A stretch of DNA of 45,046 bases from a virus (taxonomy: Duplodnaviria; Caudoviricetes). The stretch lies in the IMG/VR virus record IMGVR_UViG_3300032001_000013, positions 1 through 45,046 of that record; one strand, 5' to 3'. Within the stretch, counting starts at the first letter, position 1. Each line of letters starts with the position of its first letter. Positions 53-42,347 of this stretch are shown piece by piece. The notes beneath the pieces were generated by a model. It had not been told where the DNA came from and did not search any database. It saw nothing but the letters and a program-made list of their open reading frames with translations. A program made the position numbers and the translations under genes.

Positions 53-69
53 TGGTTCACTGAACCATT
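49..69. promoter_or_regulatory. Palindrome AATGGTTCA-C-TGAACCATT
   Basis: Perfect AT-rich inverted repeat; identical 21-mer in reverse complement at 33106-33126; both copies are associated with GGY-NN arrays. Confidence 0.7.
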
Positions 70-111
70 GACAAGCGAGGGAGGCGGCCCCCGACGTTGA
101 TCGCCTCCCCC

Positions 112-550
112 GCCTGCCGAGCCGGGCATTGCCCACCCGTGCCGATCCGTGCCCTTGCCTGCGCTGCCGCGCGATGCCCCGCCGAGCTGCGCCTTGACGT
201 GCTGAGCGATTCCTGCCCCGACTTGCCGAGCCGTGCGGTGCGATCCGTGCCGACCGAACGGCGCCCAGCCGAGCCTTGGGCTGCCTCTGCCTGCCTCACA
301 ATGGCATGCCTCGCCCCGCCTTGGAACGCCTCGCCATGCTTTTCCGGCCGAGCCGGGCCGGGCTGCGCTAGGCCCTCGAAGCCACGCCTAGCCTTTCCTG
401 CCTCGCCCAGTGCCGCATCGCCGTCCACGCCGTGCAGCGGGGTGCCACGACGGCCGCACCTTGCCTTGCCCTGCATTCCGCGCAGAGCCGAGCTGTCCGG
501 ACGGTGCCGGGCCAAGCCACGCGATCCGATCCCGTGCCGGGCCCTGACGT
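112..550 (-). repeat. GGY-NN pentamer array 1 (about 7 units; putative non-contiguous guide RNA)
   Basis: 5-nt periodic GCC-NN on + strand (GGC-NN on -), units separated by GGCAGG/GGCCGTC-type spacers; promoter-like TATCTT-CC-TTGATA at 563-550 on -; hairpin at about 79-110 downstream. Confidence 0.9.
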
Positions 551-9799: not shown

Positions 9800-9852
9800 C
9801 GCCATGTCCGGACAGATTCCCCGTGATCTCCCCGTGACTTGACATGCAGTGC

Positions 9853-9867
9853 TAGGTTTATTGATAT
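9853..9867 (+). promoter_or_regulatory. Phage promoter motif TANNNT-N2-3-TTGAYA (representative copy)
   Basis: Copies at 4483, 5028, 5919, 6674, 7889, 8422, 9853, 11252, 15090, 16881, 24481, 32752, 34492 (+) and 563, 26910, 30033, 37478 (-). Confidence 0.8.
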
Positions 9868-9890
9868 TGACCGACCAAGCGGGAGAACGG

Positions 9891-11249
9891 ATGAGAACCG
9901 AGACGGAGATCGTTGCCGCCATGAGAGCGGCGGCGCAGCCAGGACGGCTGCGCCTGAGCAGGCAGGTCACCGCGCAGCTGCGGGGCCTGACCGATGAGCT
10001 GGCGGCAGCCCGGCCGGCCTCGGCGCAGGAGTACGCGCGGTTCCTGGCCATCGGCCGCCGCGGCATGGTCCTGCCCGAGGCGGAGCTGGCCGGCCGGATC
10101 CGGCATGCCACCATCCTGGTGACCGGCGGGACCGGCTGCATCGGCACTGAGCTGATCCGCCAGCTGGCTGAGCGGCGGTCGGGCCTGGGCTGCCTGGTCA
10201 GCGTCAGCCGCGGCATCACCAGCGGCTACCCGCGTCACCCTGAAGTCAAGTACCGGCATGCCGACATCTGCGATCGCGCTGCCATGAATGAGCTGATGGC
10301 CGAGATCAGGCCCGATCTGGTCTTCCACGTGGCGGGCCAGCGCGACCCGGGCCTGGCCGAGACCGAGGTGCACCGCACCGTGACCACCAACGTGCTCGGC
10401 ACCCGCGCCGTGCTGGTCGCGGCGGTACGGGCCGGCGTCCCCCAGGTGGTGTGCTGCTCGACCGGCAAGGCACTGCGGCCGTACTCCCCTGACGTGTACA
10501 CGGCATCCAAGCGCGCGGCCGAGTGGGTCGCCTCGGGCGTGGCCGCTGCCACCCCCATGCTGGTCTCGGCCAGCCGGTTCACGCACGTGATGGACAACTC
10601 GATCATCTGCCGGAAGCTGTGGCGCTGGGCGGAGGCCGGCCGTGCCATGCGGCTGCACGACCCCGGTATCGCGTTCTACGTCCAGTCGGCCCGGGAGTCC
10701 GCCCAGCTGCTGCTGCTGGCGGTCCTGGAGGCCCGCCGGGGCGAGTTCCGGGTCAACGCCCTGACCGATCTCGGCTGGCCGGTGAGCCTGCTGGACGTCG
10801 CGCTGGGGACGCGGGCGGCGGCAGGCCCGGAGTCGCCGGTCTACTTCAGCGGCTACGACCGCGGGTACGAGGAGACCCCGTTCCCGGGCCTGTACGACCC
10901 GCTGACCGCGGGCGGGGTGAGCCCGCTGCTGAACATGTTCGAGGCCGCCGCGAAGACGGGCTGGGCCGAGGGCCAGGCCGACACGTTCCGGCTGGGCTTC
11001 GCGCCCGACCGGCAGGCCCTCAAGCGGCTGGCCGTGCTCGCCGAGGTCTGCGGCAGCACCACGAACCCGGGGCTTGCCCGGGGCTGCCTCGATGAGCTGT
11101 CCTGGGCGCTGCTGTCCGCGGCCACGCGGGCGGTCCCGCCCGCGCTGCTGGCCCGCTCGGCCAAGATGGCCCGGCAGCAGGAGCCGCTGAGCGACGTGCA
11201 CCGCCGCGTCCTGGAGGTTATCGAGTCAGCGACCGGTGTATTCGGGTAA
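9891..11249 (+). CDS. CapD-like NAD-dependent nucleotide-sugar epimerase/dehydratase (polysaccharide biosynthesis)
   Basis: ILVTGGTGCIG Rossmann motif, VFHVA, NVLGT, STGKA, YTASK. Confidence 0.85.
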   Translation: MRTETEIVAAMRAAAQPGRLRLSRQVTAQLRGLTDELAAARPASAQEYARFLAIGRRGMVLPEAELAGRIRHATILVTGGTGCIGTELIRQLAERRSGLGCLVSVSRGITSGYPRHPEVKYRHADICDRAAMNELMAEIRPDLVFHVAGQRDPGLAETEVHRTVTTNVLGTRAVLVAAVRAGVPQVVCCSTGKALRPYSPDVYTASKRAAEWVASGVAAATPMLVSASRFTHVMDNSIICRKLWRWAEAGRAMRLHDPGIAFYVQSARESAQLLLLAVLEARRGEFRVNALTDLGWPVSLLDVALGTRAAAGPESPVYFSGYDRGYEETPFPGLYDPLTAGGVSPLLNMFEAAAKTGWAEGQADTFRLGFAPDRQALKRLAVLAEVCGSTTNPGLARGCLDELSWALLSAATRAVPPALLARSAKMARQQEPLSDVHRRVLEVIESATGVFG

Positions 11250-11290
11250 GCTAGGTTCATTGATATTCATTCACCCGAGGGGGACTACTC

Positions 11291-12634
11291 ATGACTGCCG
11301 CGCCGGGGCGACCCTGGGCTGAGGGCGAGCCTGCCCACCAGTTCCAGGTACCCGCGTACCAGCCGCCCGCCCATCTCCTGGGCCCGTTCCGCGTTCCCGA
11401 CGACACCAGCACCCAGGTCATGCCCGCCTGGCGGCCCGAGGAGACCGTCACGGCGCCGCTGCCGCTGGGCCAGCCCGAGCCGGTCCCGGCGCCGCGGCGC
11501 AACCGGATCATCGCCCTGGTGCCCGTGCACAACGGGGAAGCGGACCTGGCCCCGGCCATCGAGGCGCTGCTGGCCCAGACCCGCCCGCTGGACGAGATCA
11601 TCATCATCTCCGACAACTCGACAGACGGCACCGTGGCGGTCGCGAGCCGCTACCCGGTGACGGTGATCGAGTCGGCAGGCAACAGGTACCGCAAGTCCGG
11701 CGCGCTGAACCAGGCCTGGCGCAAGTACGCCCAGGACGCCGACTACGTGGTGTGCATCGACGATGACACCCGGCTGCCGCCGTTTGCGGTGGAGCACTTC
11801 GAGGCCGAGATGACCGAGGATCCCGGGGTAGGTGGCATCTCCTGCCAGGTGGTGATGCGGGGCAGCAGCATCCTGAGCCGGATCCAGCGGGCCGAGTTCG
11901 CGCAGAGCACGGTGCTGAGCCGGAACCGGGGCTGGGTCCGGGTCATCTCGGGCACCGGCTGCATCTTCCGCAACGAGGCGCTGCGCGAGGCCGCCCTGCT
12001 CCCGGGCCAGGAGGGCCCGTGGACCTACCGCAGCGTGGTCGAGGACTACCACCTGACCTTCCAGCTGCGCAAGCTGGGCTGGCTGTGCATCATGAGCAAG
12101 GACGTGTGGTGCGACACCGGCAGCATGCCCTCGGTGAAGGCGCTGTGGCACCAGCGGGTCAAGTGGCAGTCCGGCACGATCGGCGACCTGATCAACTTCG
12201 GCTTCAACCGGATGAACTGGCGCGAGTGGATGCAGCAGTTCTACGGCCTGATCTGCGTGGCCTTCTGGATCCTGTGGATCTCGCTGAACGGGACCGCCTG
12301 GGCCCTGGGCGGGCTGCACCCGAACATCTGGTGGGTCATCTTCCCGGCGATCTTCGCGGGGACCGAGTGCTTCTACGCCTGGCACATCCACGGCCGCGAC
12401 TGGAAGGACATGCTGCTGGCCGTCTCCATGGTCAAGATGATGATCTACACCTTCCTGTGCATGGGCTGGAACCTGGCCAGCTGGTGGATCATCCTGCGCG
12501 GCAAGCAGAAGGACCTGTGGGCTGCCCAGTACGTCGCCGACGGGACAGACAAGGTACTAGGGGAGGGAATGAGCGATGCCGGACCTGCCAGCGAAGAGGA
12601 CCGTCGTCCCGCGCCGCAGGCGCTATGCCGTTAG
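11291..12634 (+). CDS. Processive GT2 glycosyltransferase (cellulose/PNAG synthase-like)
   Basis: PVHN, DNSTD, KSGALN, DDD, VED, QRVKW (QxxRW-like) and C-terminal TM helices. Confidence 0.9.
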   Translation: MTAAPGRPWAEGEPAHQFQVPAYQPPAHLLGPFRVPDDTSTQVMPAWRPEETVTAPLPLGQPEPVPAPRRNRIIALVPVHNGEADLAPAIEALLAQTRPLDEIIIISDNSTDGTVAVASRYPVTVIESAGNRYRKSGALNQAWRKYAQDADYVVCIDDDTRLPPFAVEHFEAEMTEDPGVGGISCQVVMRGSSILSRIQRAEFAQSTVLSRNRGWVRVISGTGCIFRNEALREAALLPGQEGPWTYRSVVEDYHLTFQLRKLGWLCIMSKDVWCDTGSMPSVKALWHQRVKWQSGTIGDLINFGFNRMNWREWMQQFYGLICVAFWILWISLNGTAWALGGLHPNIWWVIFPAIFAGTECFYAWHIHGRDWKDMLLAVSMVKMMIYTFLCMGWNLASWWIILRGKQKDLWAAQYVADGTDKVLGEGMSDAGPASEEDRRPAPQALCR

Positions 12635-13697
12635 CGCGGCCCTGGGGACCGTGGCAGCGGCCGTGCTGGGCCTGGCGCTCTGGTCGATGGCCGGCGTGAC
12701 CGCGGCCTACCGCGGGGTGACCCCGGCCGCCGCGGCAGCGGCAGCGCCCGCGCCCCGGCCGCTGGTGATCTACCACGCGCCGTTCGTCAGGTACGAGAGG
12801 GCCAGGGCCGTGCCGGTGCTGGTCTACCACGAGATGAACAACGGCTGCGCGCCCTCGGCGCCGGTCTGCAAGGCGGCCGACCCGGAGACGGTGAGCACCG
12901 CCCAGTTCCGGGCCGAGATGGCCTACATGTTCAGCCGCGGCTACCACACCGTCACCATGGCGCAGTACCAGGCCTGGCTGGGCAACCGCAAGACGAGGCT
13001 GCCGTCCAGGCCGTTCCTGATCACGGCGGACAACGGCATCTGGAGCTTCCTGTCCGGGGCCCAGCCGGTCCTGGCGGGCTACGGCTACACCGCCGTGGCC
13101 GCGGTCGTGACCGGGTTCGCCGACGGGGCTGGCGGGCACTGCGCGCCGCGGATCGGCGGGGTCAGCGTCCAGCCGGGCTGCCCGCGGGACAACGCCGGCT
13201 GGGATGCCACCTGGGCCCAGCTCCGGTCGCTCGACCCGAGGGTGTGGGAGTTCATCCTGGAGGCCGGGCCGTCCGGCCACTACGTCCAGGATTACGACCC
13301 GCACTGCCGGATGTTCGACGCCTGCCTGCTGCCCGGCGAGACCGTGGCGCAGTACCAGGTCCGCCTGGCGGCCGAGCTGGGCGGCGGCGAGACGGCGCTG
13401 GCTGCCCGCCTGGGCAGCCGCGTGAACCCCGGCGGCTGGGTGGTCCCCTACAGCGACCTGGGCTACCCGCGCTGCGCGCAGGGCGACTGCACGCCGCAGG
13501 ACGCCACGATCCCGCAGGGCTACCTGGTGAATTACGCCGATGCTCACTTCCGGGCCGTCTTCGTCGAGGATGCTTCCCGCAATGCCATCGGCCACGAGCG
13601 GTTCCGGTTCGACGTCAACGGCCCGGACACCGAGGCCTCATTCCAGAGCCAGCTGGCGGCTTTCACCGCCGCGGGCGCATTCGACAGGAGCAGGTAA
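12576..13697 (+). CDS. Polysaccharide deacetylase-like secreted/anchored protein
   Basis: VPVLVYHE, GYHTVT, FLITADNG (TFDDG-like); N-terminal TM. Confidence 0.75.
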   Translation: MPDLPAKRTVVPRRRRYAVSAALGTVAAAVLGLALWSMAGVTAAYRGVTPAAAAAAAPAPRPLVIYHAPFVRYERARAVPVLVYHEMNNGCAPSAPVCKAADPETVSTAQFRAEMAYMFSRGYHTVTMAQYQAWLGNRKTRLPSRPFLITADNGIWSFLSGAQPVLAGYGYTAVAAVVTGFADGAGGHCAPRIGGVSVQPGCPRDNAGWDATWAQLRSLDPRVWEFILEAGPSGHYVQDYDPHCRMFDACLLPGETVAQYQVRLAAELGGGETALAARLGSRVNPGGWVVPYSDLGYPRCAQGDCTPQDATIPQGYLVNYADAHFRAVFVEDASRNAIGHERFRFDVNGPDTEASFQSQLAAFTAAGAFDRSR

Positions 13698-15247: not shown

Positions 15248-15502
15248 ATGAGCGCTGAGAGCCCCGGAGAGCCTTTCCAGGGCCTGGGCATCCCCGACAC
15301 GGTGCCGCCGCCCTGGGCCTTCACAGAGCGCTGGCGCGAGGCGATTGCCGGGATCCTGCGGCCGATGGCCGACAAGGGCGTGATCGAGCCCGACTGGGAG
15401 GTGTCAGGCCGGTGGGACGAGGCCACCCGGAGCCATCAGATGGTCATCAGGATCCGGGTGATCATCGCCCCGCCGGATGACCCTAGCCCAGCAGGTAGCT
15501 GA
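15248..15502 (+). CDS. Hypothetical protein
   Basis: RBS AGGAGG. Confidence 0.65.
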   Translation: MSAESPGEPFQGLGIPDTVPPPWAFTERWREAIAGILRPMADKGVIEPDWEVSGRWDEATRSHQMVIRIRVIIAPPDDPSPAGS

Positions 15503-16238
15503 AGACCGGCCCGGCGACGGACACGCGCCCGGCCTCGGCCCGGTTGGCGCGGACCCGGGCCTGGTGCACCGCGCCGATCAGCCTCTCGCACCGCTCGATC
15601 AGCGCGAGCTTGTCCTCGCGGGACAGCGCGCCGGAGAACCGGGTGATCTCCCACACGCCCGTGCGCTTCTCGTCGGGCACGGCCTGGGCCTGGCCGGCCT
15701 GGTACTGGGTCGGCTCGATCAGCACCAGGGACTTCAGCCCCTTCTCGACCCGCAGCCGCTGCTCGGGGTGGCGGCTGCGGAAGGAGCCGTCGTCCTCGTC
15801 CCAGTCCCACAGCTCGGACGGGTCGCGCACCTGGAGGGCCCGGAAGAAGCCCAGGACCTGGCCCAGCTGGTGCTCCAGCGGCAGCAGGTAGGTGACCGGC
15901 ACGTCGCGCAGCAGCGGCACCTGGTCCTCCTCGTCGAGCACGACGTCCGCGGTGGCCGCGGTGTTCGCGTACTCCTTGGCCGCGGACAGGTCCAGGGCAG
16001 GGGTCAGCACCCGGGCCAGCTCGGCCAGGATCTCCGGGGTGCGCTCCTGGAGCACCTCGGTCTTCTCCGGCTGGCTGTGCAGGCCCTCCGGGTCGTGCTG
16101 GTCATGCTTGTAGACCTGGCTGAAGCCGGCGAACAGCTCCTTGCGCTGGACGCGCCTGAGCAGCTCCTCGCGCTGCTTGTCAGCACTCTGGCGGGCCGTC
16201 TTCTCGACGGCGACGACCTCGCCCAGGGTCTGGGTCAT
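15483..16238 (-). CDS. Conserved actinobacterial/phage protein (DUF7873-like)
   Basis: L.EVVAVEK, AN..A.ADV, VPVTYLL.LE.QL, G.W....FSGAL, AV..AR..AN, VF.YL pattern recalled for this family; RBS GAGGAGG. Confidence 0.75.
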   Translation of the reverse strand: MTQTLGEVVAVEKTARQSADKQREELLRRVQRKELFAGFSQVYKHDQHDPEGLHSQPEKTEVLQERTPEILAELARVLTPALDLSAAKEYANTAATADVVLDEEDQVPLLRDVPVTYLLPLEHQLGQVLGFFRALQVRDPSELWDWDEDDGSFRSRHPEQRLRVEKGLKSLVLIEPTQYQAGQAQAVPDEKRTGVWEITRFSGALSREDKLALIERCERLIGAVHQARVRANRAEAGRVSVAGPVFSYLLG

Positions 16239-32766: not shown

Positions 32767-33770
32767 GGCCTGGCCGGGCCAGGCGAAGCCTTGACAGCGC
32801 GTCAAGGCATCGCGTGGCAGGAAAGGCTAGGCGTGGTGCCGATCGCCCGGCGTCGCTCTGCTAGGCAGTCGAGGCGCAGCCCGGCGCGGATGGCCGGGCC
32901 GGGTAGCGCCAGGCAGAGCAGGGCAGGGCAGGATGGGCCCCGCTCGGATGGCTGGGCATGGCAGCGCAGGAAAGGAATGTCTTGGCCTGGCCAGGCGAGG
33001 CCCGGCGGGGCAGTCATGGCTCGTCTAGGCATTGCGGGCCAGGGCGAGGCGAGGCAGGCGATTGCTCGGCGGGCCGTGGCGCCGCAGGGCAGGTCTAGGC
33101 AGGCTAATGGTTCAGTGAACCATTAAGGCAGCCAAGGCATGCCGGGGCGAGGCTCCGCGGGGCATCGCCGGGTATCGCAAGGCCGTCATCGCGGGGCACC
33201 GCCCGTCCTGGATGGGCATGGCGCCGCGCGGCGCTGCCAGGCAGGATTGGCGAGGCTTGGCCCAGGCATTGCCGGTCGTGGCACCGCCCGGCAAGGCAGG
33301 AGAGTCTGGGCTAGGCGGGGCATCGCTCAGCGCGGCGAGGCACAGTGCCGCGAGGCCGGGCGGGGCTAGGCAGTCCAGGCATCGCTCGTCGCGGCCAGGC
33401 ATGGCCCGGCGAGGCGCAGCGAGGCAGTCCCGGTATCGCTCGGATGGCTTGGCCAGGCAAGGCCAGGCAGGGCCGTCGAGGCGTGGCCTTGCGCCGCCTG
33501 GACCGCAACGCATCGCAAGGCTGGGCAAGGCAGGTGCAGCCTGGCAAGGCAGTGCCTGGCGGCGCAACGCGCAGCCTGGCCAGGCGAGGCAGTCAGGTCG
33601 TGGCGAGCCTTGGCCCGGCAGTGCCCGGCCCGGCAGCGCCCGGCACGGCATGGCAGGAGATGCTAGTCAGGGCCAGGCTCGGCTCGGATCGCGCGGCTCG
33701 GCGCGGCAGGAGCAGCTTGGCATGGCGGGGAGAGGCTGAGCCCGGCTAGCGGGGCAAGGCGCGGCAGGTA
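32767..33770 (+). repeat. GGY-NN pentamer array 3 (about 18 units)
   Basis: Starts right after promoter TAAGGT-TCA-TTGATA (32752); internal palindrome at 33105-33125. Confidence 0.92.
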
Positions 33771-33789: not shown

Positions 33790-34494
33790 GTGACTACTCC
33801 TCAGCCGTTCGTCCCGGCGTATCCGGCCGGCTTCTTGCGCGTCATCAAGGCCGGCTCGGTCGACGCGCTGAACCAGGCCTTCGCGATCGCCTACCCCGAG
33901 CAGGATGCGGCCGGCGGGATCCAGGCGCCGTACATCAGCATCGACTACCCGGTGAGCCAGGGCGCCTACCCGGGCATCTGGGTGGACTTCGAGGTGGCCA
34001 TGCTGCGCACCGCGGGCATCGACCACATCGAGATGCTGGATGACGGCACGGTGCTGGCCCGCTGGCGGTTCCAGGGCTACGCGGTGTTCACCACCGTGGC
34101 GCTGAACAGCAACGAGTGCGACGGGATCTACGACCAGCTGGTGGCGCTGACCGCGTTCGCCGCTCAGTCCGAGGTGCCCTCGGTCTTCCGCGATGTCATC
34201 GACTCCAACGGCCTGGTGAGCACCACCTGGAGCTACGACACGGTGGAGGCCCGCGGCCAGTCCGCGGCGCCGGGCACGCCCTGGGGCACCACCGAGATCA
34301 TCTACGAGCGCGGCATCGCGCTGAAGGTGATCGGCGAGTTCGTCACCAACCCGGCCTCGGCCGTCTACGAGCTGGTGCCGCTGAGCAAGATCATCATCAC
34401 CGGCCAGATGCAGATCGACGACGTGAACGCCGGCGACCCGTTCATCCTGACCATCCCGCCGGAGACCCCGCCGTTCACCCCGCTTCCCGGCTAA
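33790..34494 (+). CDS. Putative tail terminator protein
   Basis: SIDYP...YPGIWV motif; position before sheath. Confidence 0.65.
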   Translation: MTTPQPFVPAYPAGFLRVIKAGSVDALNQAFAIAYPEQDAAGGIQAPYISIDYPVSQGAYPGIWVDFEVAMLRTAGIDHIEMLDDGTVLARWRFQGYAVFTTVALNSNECDGIYDQLVALTAFAAQSEVPSVFRDVIDSNGLVSTTWSYDTVEARGQSAAPGTPWGTTEIIYERGIALKVIGEFVTNPASAVYELVPLSKIIITGQMQIDDVNAGDPFILTIPPETPPFTPLPG

Positions 34495-34505: not shown

Positions 34506-35324
34506 AGCATGGTGGTCCTGGGCTGGGCGTCGGTGGCACATCACGTCCAGGCCGGGCGTGGCCGTCCAGGCGCGGATAGCCAGGACGGCGCGTCCAGGCG
34601 CTGCCGCGCTCGGCAGTCCTGGTGTCGCGAGGCGGGGCAGTGCGTCGCTGGTCGCGGCAAGGCAAGGCCCGGCTCGGCCGTCGCGGTTAGTCTGCGCGTG
34701 TCGGTGCTGGGCCCGGAGCGCTAGGCTTCGCTGGGCCGTCGGCGCATCGCTATGCGTGGCCCGGCTTGGCGTGGCAAGGCCTCGCATCGCAAGGCAAGGC
34801 CGTCGAGGCTTAGCTGGTCTGGGCACGGGATGCCAGGCACGGCGGGGCGCGGCCGTCCAGGCTGGTCTAGGACATCCCGTCGAGGACTGGCGTGGCCGTC
34901 AAGGCCTGGCGGGTCCGGGCCCGGTACCGCATGGCACAACTCGGCGCGGCCGGAGATGCTGGGCTAGGCGAGGCATCGCGGGGCGCGGCGAGGCTAGGCC
35001 GTCTGCGCGGGGCTCGGCAAGGGTCGCTCCGCTCGGCAGGGCACGGCGAGGCCGGGTTGGCAAGGGTCGCCCGGGTGGCGTTGCATCGCTTGGCCGTCCT
35101 GGTATAGCCCGGCGTCGCATTGCGAAGCGGCGCGGGGCATGGCCTGGCTGTCGAGGCTGAGCTTGGCGCTGCGTCGCTTGGCGCTGCGAGGCTGGGCGCG
35201 GCCGTCCTGGCCCGGCCCGGAGGCGCAACGCGGGTCCAGGCGAGGCAGGGCTAGGCCGTCTAGGCACGTCCCGGCGGGTCGGGGCTGAGCTAGTCGCCGC
35301 CTGGCAAGGTGTGGTGAGGCAGGA
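34506..35324 (+). repeat. GGY-NN pentamer array 4 (about 15 units)
   Basis: Follows promoter TAAGGT-TCT-TTGATA (34492); GGCCGTC separators. Confidence 0.92.
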
Positions 35325-36933: not shown

Positions 36934-37458
36934 GCCTGCCCTACCCTGCACAGCTAAGCGCTCCAAGCCAAGACGAGCGCAGACGGCCATGCCCTGCCAA
37001 GCGTTCCGTGCCCGGCCTCGCCTTGACGGCCATGCCCAGCTCCGCGAGCCCGCGCCTAGCCAGGCCTCTCCGGCCGAGCGCTCCACGCCAAGCCCTGCCA
37101 AGCACGGCCTAGTCGTGCCATGCCGCTCCGGCCTCGCCACGCTCAGCGACGCCAGTCCTCGCCGAGCCAAGCGACTCCTGCCGAGCCGAGCGCGGACATC
37201 CCGGGCCGCGCCAATCCCGGCCAGGCCGCGACTGCCCGGCCCTGCCTAGCCAGGACTAGCCGCCCTGGCCCCGCGGTGCGTTTCCGGCCCCGCCAAGCCC
37301 CGCCGTGCCTAGCCACGCGACGCCCAGCAATGCGCTGACGGCCGTGCCGGGCACAGCGGCCCATGCCGGTCCAAGCGCAGCAACACCTGGACGGCCTCGC
37401 CTCAGCGTGCCCTGGCAAGCCATCTAAGCCAGGCCCGGATGTGCGGCGCCAAGACTGC
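36934..37458 (-). repeat. GGY-NN pentamer array 5 (about 10 units)
   Basis: GCC-NN register on +; promoter TAGAAT-CA-TTGACA at 37478-37465 on -. Confidence 0.92.
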
Positions 37459-41261: not shown

Positions 41262-41665
41262 GCCTGCCTTGCCCTGCCACGCCTATCTATGCTGCTCCGA
41301 GCCCTTGCCTGCCTTGCCCCGCCTTGCCGTGCCAGGCTTCGCCGTCCGAGCCGCTCCTGCCTAGCCTCGCCATACTGCGCCTGTCCTCGCTATGCTGCGA
41401 CTCGCCGCGCCTCGCCAGGACTGCCCTGCCGCACCGTGCCTCGCCCAGCTGTGATCGCCCTGCCCAGCAGCGCCTTGACTGCCTTGCCCGGCATTGCCCA
41501 GCGGCCCTTGCCGGGACAGGCCCGGACATGCCAGGACTGCCTCGCCTCGCCCCGCCCTGCCCAGCCAAGACTGGCCATGCCGTCCCTTGACGGCCGCGCC
41601 CTGCTGAGCCTTGCGGAGCCGGGCCCCGCCTACCCGGGCCCTGCCGTGCCTTCGTCTCCTGCCTG
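41262..41665 (-). repeat. GGY-NN pentamer array 6 (about 7 units)
   Basis: GCC-NN register on + with GACTGCC separators; downstream of - gene 41808..42347. Confidence 0.88.
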
Positions 41666-41797
41666 GCCGCTGCCGGGCAGCGGCATCGCGAGCCAGCGCT
41701 TCCTGTCCGGCTTGCCGTGGCACTGGCTGCACCCGCAGTGGGTCTCATGCGTGCCCGGGGCCGAGCAGTGCGGCCCGCAGTCCGGTGTGCTGCCCAT
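41630..41797 (-). CDS. Possible small Cys/His-rich protein, 55 aa
   Basis: MGSTPDCGPHC...HCGCSQCHG; runs into array 6. Confidence 0.4.
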   Translation of the reverse strand: MGSTPDCGPHCSAPGTHETHCGCSQCHGKPDRKRWLAMPLPGSGQAGDEGTAGPG

Positions 41798-41807
41798 CCC
41801 CCGGAGC

Positions 41808-42347
41808 TTACGCCCCGTGGCTGAACTGCACTCCCGGGACCTCGTTCTGCCCGTCGGGGCCGTGCACGATGACTTCGAGGTCCTGATCGGTCACCACCGG
41901 GTCGCCGAACTTGTCGACTTCCTCCCGGCCGACATCGTGGCTGCCGCAGCTGTGGCAGGTGGACCGCCAGTGCCGGCCGCGCAGTGCCCGGCCGTGCGTG
42001 ACCGGGTGCAGGTCGTTCTGGAGCCGCCAGATCGTGTCGATGTTGAACGTCTCCAGCTGCTCGGCGGCCTCCAGGGCCAGCTCGGGCCGCTGGTAGGCGG
42101 CGTAGAGCCGCCGGTACCGGTACAGGGTGCCGATGCTCAGGTCCATCGCGTCGGCCAGCTGGATCAGGGTGTAGGCATCGGTGAAGCTGTCGACGCACTG
42201 CCCGAACCGCCAGGCGGCGCGTACCGAGTCCTGGCCCGCCTTGACGAGTCCCGCGTAGGACAGCTCCAGCGTGTTGAGGGTGCCCGCGTCTACGCGGCGT
42301 CCTGGCGTGGTGGTCCTCCGGCTGCCCGGTGTGTCGGCGTTATTCAT
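41808..42347 (-). CDS. HTH plus Zn-ribbon protein upstream of array 6
   Basis: LADAMDLSIGTLYRY HTH-like; CHSCGS; RBS GAAGGA; promoter-like TATTTT-CC-TTAGTA at about 42387. Confidence 0.75.
   Translation of the reverse strand: MNNADTPGSRRTTTPGRRVDAGTLNTLELSYAGLVKAGQDSVRAAWRFGQCVDSFTDAYTLIQLADAMDLSIGTLYRYRRLYAAYQRPELALEAAEQLETFNIDTIWRLQNDLHPVTHGRALRGRHWRSTCHSCGSHDVGREEVDKFGDPVVTDQDLEVIVHGPDGQNEVPGVQFSHGA

Follow-up and report, generated by a model that had tools for sequence, protein, structure and literature searches.

One unit of a five-base-period repeat array in a fragment of a tailed phage is almost certainly a guide aimed at the genes of short prokaryotic Argonautes (pAgos). Because its spaced base pairs match conserved short-pAgo codons, the unit is likely a VIPR guide, and we consider it probable that it belongs to the phage's own VIPR system and silences the short-pAgo defence of the host, mostly SPARDA. 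This reading draws on direct observation of the array grammar, of an exact wobble-aligned match, of the identity of the target and of its nuclease partner, and of vipr genes in related phages.

In the texts of the VIPR preprints, the system consists of Vipr, a vrRNA and Vap, and is described for SUSP1 and P. fulva type II (bioRxiv 10.64898/2026.04.26.720920, 10.64898/2026.04.26.720927). The guides have 9-16 repeats, whose NN dinucleotides pair with double-stranded DNA, every third base being skipped (bioRxiv 10.64898/2026.04.26.720920, 10.64898/2026.04.26.720927, 10.64898/2026.10.15.759431, 10.64898/2026.10.21.760802). Repression works on either strand and needs no PAM, and the methods of the same text give a relaxed repeat form, YNNNG (bioRxiv 10.64898/2026.04.26.720920); the SUSP1 Vipr reads a GGY scaffold (bioRxiv 10.64898/2026.04.26.720927). 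The natural targets described in these texts are satellites, prophages, vipr genes, other guides and REP decoys (bioRxiv 10.64898/2026.04.26.720920, 10.64898/2026.10.15.759431), and solo vrRNAs are known from F5 satellites and vipr-null phages (bioRxiv 10.64898/2026.10.15.759431).

Six arrays among the structural genes of a phage fragment

The stretch of DNA that we analysed, hereafter the window, is a linear IMG/VR record of 45,046 nucleotides with an estimated completeness of 28% and a G+C content of about 70%. Pfam and PHROGs, applied to 53 of its 224 ORFs, identified structural genes and glycosyltransferases, the former including the head and tail genes of a myovirus (major head, tail sheath and tail chaperone in PHROGs); ORFs overlapping the arrays were taken as by-products of the repeats. 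In its capsid protein, the phage shares 57-60% identity with Gordonia phages and mycobacteriophages, e.g., ScottMcG and Myrna. We take the phage to be mycobacteriophage-cluster-C-like, and its host is probably an actinomycete. The listed sequencing runs that contain the region are all soil metagenomes (24 out of 24) and may include the source data. The list includes no RNA dataset, which speaks neither for nor against expression of the arrays. An assembly artefact was rejected given that the contig of one run, possibly the source itself, shows zero differences from the window between 32700 and 35361. A search for relatives through the gene at 33790 returned none. The structural region also holds epimerase/dehydratase and GT2 glycosyltransferase genes (9849-13697), and elsewhere we observed a DUF7873 protein (15486-16238, minus strand) and a protein resembling dual-specificity phosphatases (955-1401).

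The window contains six arrays with a five-base period, all of them intergenic and scattered among the structural genes, with more than 50 guides in total:

55-545, minus strand: array 1, from the five-base-period parse
32794-33104, plus strand: array 2, immediately upstream of array 3 and with a grammar identical in kind
33106-33124, no strand assigned: 19-nt palindrome that separates arrays 2 and 3; array 1 has a near-identical copy at its end (51-69)
33125-33769, plus strand: array 3, about 11 guide units, flanked by two genes of the structural region
34527-35324, plus strand: array 4, upstream of the tail sheath gene
36934-37447, minus strand: array 5, separating the sheath gene from the next structural gene
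41262-41696, minus strand: array 6, from the five-base-period parse

Parsing by dynamic programming gave 60 segments, a few of which are merged double units; 53 have at least 8 dinucleotides. Units end in a 7-nt delimiter of the form GGC(A/C/T)G followed by two bases. The 486 three-base scaffolds are mostly GGC (264), followed by CGC (73), GTC (31), TGC (30), AGC (29) and GGT (13), and are consistent with the relaxed YNNNG form. An internal scaffold of 2 nt occurs in 27 of the 53 units with at least 8 dinucleotides, and GG accounts for 30 of these 36 short scaffolds. The two palindromes resemble operator or processing sites. We found no sigma-70 promoter or terminator near array 3, and no Rfam family matched the array region. 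Immediately upstream of array 6 lies a 179-aa orphan gene, antisense to the structural genes (41808-42347, minus strand), which has no Pfam or PHROG match and no homologue in five related records; it is a candidate accessory gene.

These arrays resemble VIPR in their five-base period, in the combination of a fixed scaffold with variable NN, in a guide length of about 9-13 NN, in the wobble-aligned one-base skip, and in being carried by a phage. They differ from published VIPR in their relaxed scaffold (C-NN-x-G), in the frequent 2-nt GG scaffolds, in a delimiter of 7 nt that takes the place of the pseudoknot tail, in the dispersal of more than 50 guides over six arrays among structural genes, and in having a bacterial immunity gene as a target. 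Type II systems (SUSP1-like) carry a conserved pseudoknot 3' tail on each tract, whereas the tracts of the window are separated only by the 7-nt delimiter, with no structured tail, and we therefore did not assign its arrays to this type. They are possibly the 'staggered' arrays that appear in Fig. S18 of the VIPR preprint, as far as the available text describes them. Like the solo vrRNAs of F5 satellites and vipr-null phages, the guides of the window have no adjacent vipr and target conserved codons in wobble alignment. However, the host chromosomal sites of solo vrRNAs (REP elements) are decoys, whereas our guide matches a motif conserved in the coding sequence of a defence gene.

A predicted guide that matches the PIWI motif of short Argonautes

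The unit lies in array 3:

33471-33477, plus strand: 7-nt delimiter preceding the guide, of the family GGC(A/C/T)G plus 2 nt
33478-33528, plus strand: predicted vrRNA guide tract with 11 NN, directed against short pAgo genes at their C-terminal PIWI codons
33529-33535, plus strand: 7-nt delimiter after the guide, without a long conserved 3' tail

It is parsed as GA.ggc.GT.ggc.CT.tgc.GC.cgc.CT.[gg].AC.cgc.AA.cgc.AT.cgc.AA.ggc.TG.ggc.AA. An earlier note on this DNA had read the same 11 dinucleotides, which our parse reproduces exactly, and had started the unit at 33475; the unit proper spans 33478-33528, and positions 33475-33477 belong to the preceding delimiter. The single 2-nt scaffold assumed there is not ad hoc, since such scaffolds recur in about half of the units with at least 8 dinucleotides (see above). 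An alternative parse, with CC instead of AC, fits the targets less well (21/22 vs 22/22). Counted against our best reading, only 4 of the 10 scaffolds of the unit are canonical GGY, and one has 2 nt. No structured 3' tail follows the unit (fold z-score -0.26). The guide has no match to the window fragment itself at ≤3 mismatches, the VIPR criterion being the lack of a self-target at ≥80%.

We searched for the 11 dinucleotides using the published one-base-skip rule of VIPR and found 55 exact matches in GTDB species genomes and one in IMG/VR. All 56 are in frame, 49-60 codons upstream of the stop, and the skipped base is the wobble position, which varies freely. The matched peptide is EVLALTKMNWN in 48 cases, with I for M in 7 and D for E in 1. 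The best PADLOC match of every matched ORF, some of them partial, is pAgo_I. The proposal that the unit spells the PIWI motif of pAgos is thus borne out by 56 exact matches in pAgo genes and none elsewhere, even if these matches are not independent: many are from Streptomyces, and the loci L007 and L061 are almost identical. The search of actinobacterial pAgo genes suggested by the earlier note also yielded exact fits, as 22 of the 55 GTDB matches come from records whose titles point to Actinomycetota.

An upstream ORF was found at 46 of the loci, of which 44 were scanned (L023 and L056 were left out as non-adjacent or partial). These partners were mostly DUF4365 proteins (34), with a few TIR (4), SIR2 (1), DUF4062 (1) and transposase (1) matches and 3 ORFs without a match; among the actinobacterial partners scanned, 16 out of 17 had DUF4365. 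In the accessible parts of the sources, SPARDA is a short pAgo accompanied by a DREN/DUF4365-APAZ protein (bioRxiv 10.1101/2023.06.08.544223; PMC12774872), in which DUF4365 is the DREN nuclease, and its protection operates through cell death or dormancy (bioRxiv 10.1101/2023.06.08.544223). The targets of the guide are short pAgos (about 480 aa, MID-PIWI), mostly of SPARDA, a class assigned here by DUF4365. SPARDA is thus the target system, and the guide also fits short pAgos linked to TIR (4) and SIR2 (1). Among the 10 target loci whose neighbours we inspected, L033 has a MobF relaxase and L061, the IMG/VR locus, a tyrosine recombinase, L012, L030 and L052 have restriction-modification-like genes, and L016 and L042 have housekeeping genes. 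Of the earlier proposal of a phage guide against a host Argonaute gene, the Argonaute part stands on the 56 matches; that the gene belongs to the host is something we infer, because some target loci adjoin mobile-element genes.

The number of exact GTDB matches expected by chance is 0.001-0.15 (for 70-40% GC), against 55 observed. We drew 4,000 random guides of 11 dinucleotides from the arrays' own pool and compared them in both orientations with 120 pAgo proteins: none matched at ≤1 mismatch, and 2 did at ≤2. The next best real unit of the window has 3 mismatches in 8 codons of these proteins, and among the 49 units compared with the loci, only the pAgo unit and a unit fitting the tail sheath gene (see below) exceed their 5 shuffles. 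When 0, 2 or 3 bases are skipped, the best score on 59 pAgo loci is 16/22, a weak control because these loci were chosen by the one-skip pattern. The pAgo site is single at ≤3 mismatches in all five target genomes searched, with 0 matches for the reversed pattern. Within 331 genomes of Actinomycetes, including a centre genome chosen for its match, 7 have a match at ≤3 mismatches, and the reversed control again gave 0. The five matches at ≤2 mismatches are all in the pAgo motif, 50 codons from the stop (PADLOC confirmed three of them and that of the centre genome, and one was identified by context); the two at 3 mismatches are not in pAgos and were rejected.

Exact targets are rare, which counts against our reading: 55 stretches in 185,579 genomes, and 1 out of 330 Actinomycetes besides the centre genome. 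Tolerance of a few mismatches widens the range. We compared the guide with the 120 best homologues of one target: 17 are compatible without any mismatch, 72 with 1 mismatch, 17 with 2 and 12 with 3, and the motif is absent in 2; the 106 that are compatible at ≤2 mismatches are a lower bound at the protein level, in a set that leans towards the query. For coverage with one fixed guide, the chosen stretch ranks 9 out of 473. We found no second anti-pAgo guide, with 0 matches to the guide form in IMG/VR and none at ≤2 mismatches among 519 units of other phages.

Vipr in related phages and other guides of the window

No vipr was detected in the window, whose ORFs include no G-loop candidate and no profile match, and the 53 of 224 ORFs scanned by Pfam and PHROGs include no RAMP protein. 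A search with the delimiter pattern retrieved 23 IMG/VR loci with similar arrays, 12 of which carry a common protein cluster. The profile of this cluster (12 of 13 members aligned) has a sole PDB match, the Vipr of SUSP1 (PDB 36pp, E-value 1.2e-10). Two phages of the group of the window with the same array grammar, G002 and G003, encode vipr, such that relatives pair Vipr homologues with the same arrays, as in VIPR. In G003, whose capsid is 74% identical to that of the window, vipr adjoins the array. In G002, a 162-aa gene stands between vipr (L089:3215-4159, minus strand) and an array, and further arrays are scattered far from vipr. By eye, the 162-aa gene resembles a cluster found near other arrays; a vap-like gene was not identified in the window. 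G002 shares none of the 12 window proteins compared and covers a part of the genome that is absent from the window. It is linked to the group by a large protein that is 68% identical to one of G001, which in turn is related to the window by its sheath (62% identity) and the next structural protein (81%). G001 is complete and has neither arrays nor vipr. Since arrays and vipr co-occur in the relatives seen, a vipr gene is likely present in the missing 72% of the genome of the window phage.

Homologues of the G002 vipr are annotated as hypothetical proteins in 34 GenBank records of cultured phages (41-52% identity among the matches listed), including the Gordonia phages UmaThurman, Pipp, Ecliptus and ODay and the Mycobacterium phages Saal, Mattes and others. 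One further locus, L078, from another phage, has two vipr-like genes, and its guides at 11404 and 12868 (minus strand) decode to a helix-turn-helix, which we presume to be of the excisionase type.

Three other guides of the window are the following:

35261-35324, plus strand: sheath guide; read in reverse, it fits the first codons of the group's tail sheath gene
449-545, minus strand: 19-NN unit; best match found (31/38) in the Walker A region of a DrmD-like SNF2 helicase
343-395, minus strand: guide common to G002 (9/10 NN), with 0 IMG/VR matches for its target

The sheath guide scores 20/24 on the phage's own copy (4 of 24 bases differ) and on G001, against 17 for five shuffles. The contig end of a co-occurring relative fits its codons F-S-A-Y exactly, where the phage itself has S-S for S-A and other first bases. 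The target has 0 exact matches in IMG/VR. This guide is likely directed against a relative, i.e., the sheath gene of a rival phage. The 19-NN unit may be aimed at the DrmD-like helicase, as judged from sequence, with weaker support than for the sheath guide: its core matches 1 of 331 genomes at 3 mismatches (control 0) and has 0 exact matches in IMG/VR, and the best of 120 homologues shows 7 mismatches in 38. This match, although inexact, continues in frame over an internal GG scaffold and is a second case for the 2-nt rule.

The unit at 34741, which we took to be CD-NTase-like, found no support as such a guide (0 exact metagenome matches, 0 of 261 genomes at 3 mismatches, 13-14/24 on 4 SMODS loci). 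The unit at 33595, presumably similar to the Walker A of NB-ARC, had 0 exact metagenome matches and 0 among 201 genomes at 2 mismatches. To our eyes, the units at 33247, 278, 33536 and 37068 recall a HerA-type Walker A, a helicase Walker B, a TPR helix and a Ser/Thr kinase motif, respectively. The units at 33302-33375 and 34955-35003 have 6 dinucleotides in common, and a co-occurring related phage contig has stretches similar to those at 33304-33361 and 34942-35000, suggesting a guide kept across phages. Because the units at 34741 and 33595 and the guide at 343-395 gave no target, a wider anti-defence battery is a lead and not a result. We give an even chance to such a battery, in which VIPR would serve these phages as a programmable means against immunity: dozens of wobble-blind guides would be directed at the most conserved codons in genes of host defence (short Argonautes/SPARDA, DISARM-like helicases and others) and of rival phages. 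It would amount to an RNA-guided counter-defence acting on an RNA-guided immune system, and to a direct answer of phages to prokaryotic Argonautes.

Mode of action, alternatives and implications

By analogy with the systems of the VIPR preprints, the array would be transcribed and then cut into single guides at the delimiters. One Vipr subunit per repeat would assemble into a filament, and the complex would open double-stranded DNA and block transcription. The 11 NN agree with the first two bases in each of 11 successive conserved codons, which lie towards the end of the pAgo gene. Because the guide carries the sense sequence, it would pair with template-strand DNA and not with mRNA, a mode of pairing that is ruled out, and the Vipr filament would bind the template strand of the pAgo gene. 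If transcription were blocked in the last gene of the operon, about 50 codons ahead of its stop, the pAgo mRNA would be shortened and lack a stop, and less new SPARDA would be made, which would spare the phage the abortive activation of the nuclease. Skipping the wobble base would allow one guide to cover many host alleles. Against this scheme, repression would leave in place any SPARDA already synthesized when infection begins, and the promoter is distant from the site.

The match could in principle be a coincidence between a degenerate repeat and a chosen parse. The search had wide freedom (53 units, two orientations, a 2-nt scaffold), one shuffled guide reached 21/22 among the loci compared, and the pAgo family had been named ahead of the search. 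However, none of the 4,000 random guides came within one mismatch of the 120 pAgos, all 56 matches fall in one gene family and in codon register, and other gapped patterns gave 0 exact matches in metagenome or viral collections. We regard this explanation as largely refuted and very improbable.

Two other accounts accept the guide and question its purpose or its machinery. Since some targets adjoin relaxase or recombinase genes, the aim may be a competing mobile element (prophage or integrative/conjugative element) that carries SPARDA as cargo. Such genes were found at 2 of the 10 loci inspected, the role of VIPR in the available preprint texts is conflict between elements, with satellites, prophages and vipr genes as targets, and the sheath guide is of this inter-element kind. 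Yet the pAgo guide addresses the defence gene itself rather than a gene for excision or regulation, the neighbours at other loci are restriction-modification-like or housekeeping genes, and silencing a pAgo profits the phage only through the lifted defence, wherever the gene sits, which leaves this account improbable. We also think it unlikely that the phage lacks a vipr of its own, in which case its arrays would borrow the Vipr of co-infecting phages or serve as decoys, and the pAgo guide would be occasional or a relic. The six arrays in 45 kb without a vipr are in line with this, as are the solo vrRNAs published for vipr-null phages, according to the available text (bioRxiv 10.64898/2026.10.15.759431). 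But the window is only 28% complete, G002 also has arrays far from its vipr and covers a genome part that the window lacks, and a match of 22/22 speaks against long decay. A guide of the phage's own VIPR system against the short-pAgo defence of its host thus remains our preferred reading.

The VIPR system itself is known; the class of target, a bacterial immunity gene, is new to print as far as we found. The VIPR preprint texts yielded no guide against such a gene, and their supplementary target tables may hold some. We found no literature linking vrRNA to Argonaute, a word absent from the available text of bioRxiv 10.64898/2026.10.15.759431, and no published phage counter-defence against pAgos or Argonaute inhibitor. 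If our reading is true, phages can act on the DNA itself to repress host immunity, using a reprogrammable module of 58 nt from which synonymous mutation offers no escape. The cultured phages with vipr homologues could serve as laboratory models for VIPR in actinophages, and the decoding of such arrays could provide a list of the defence genes that are relevant to a phage and aid host prediction. A phage guide directed at SPARDA would also provide evidence from nature that large actinophages in soil are restricted by short pAgos.
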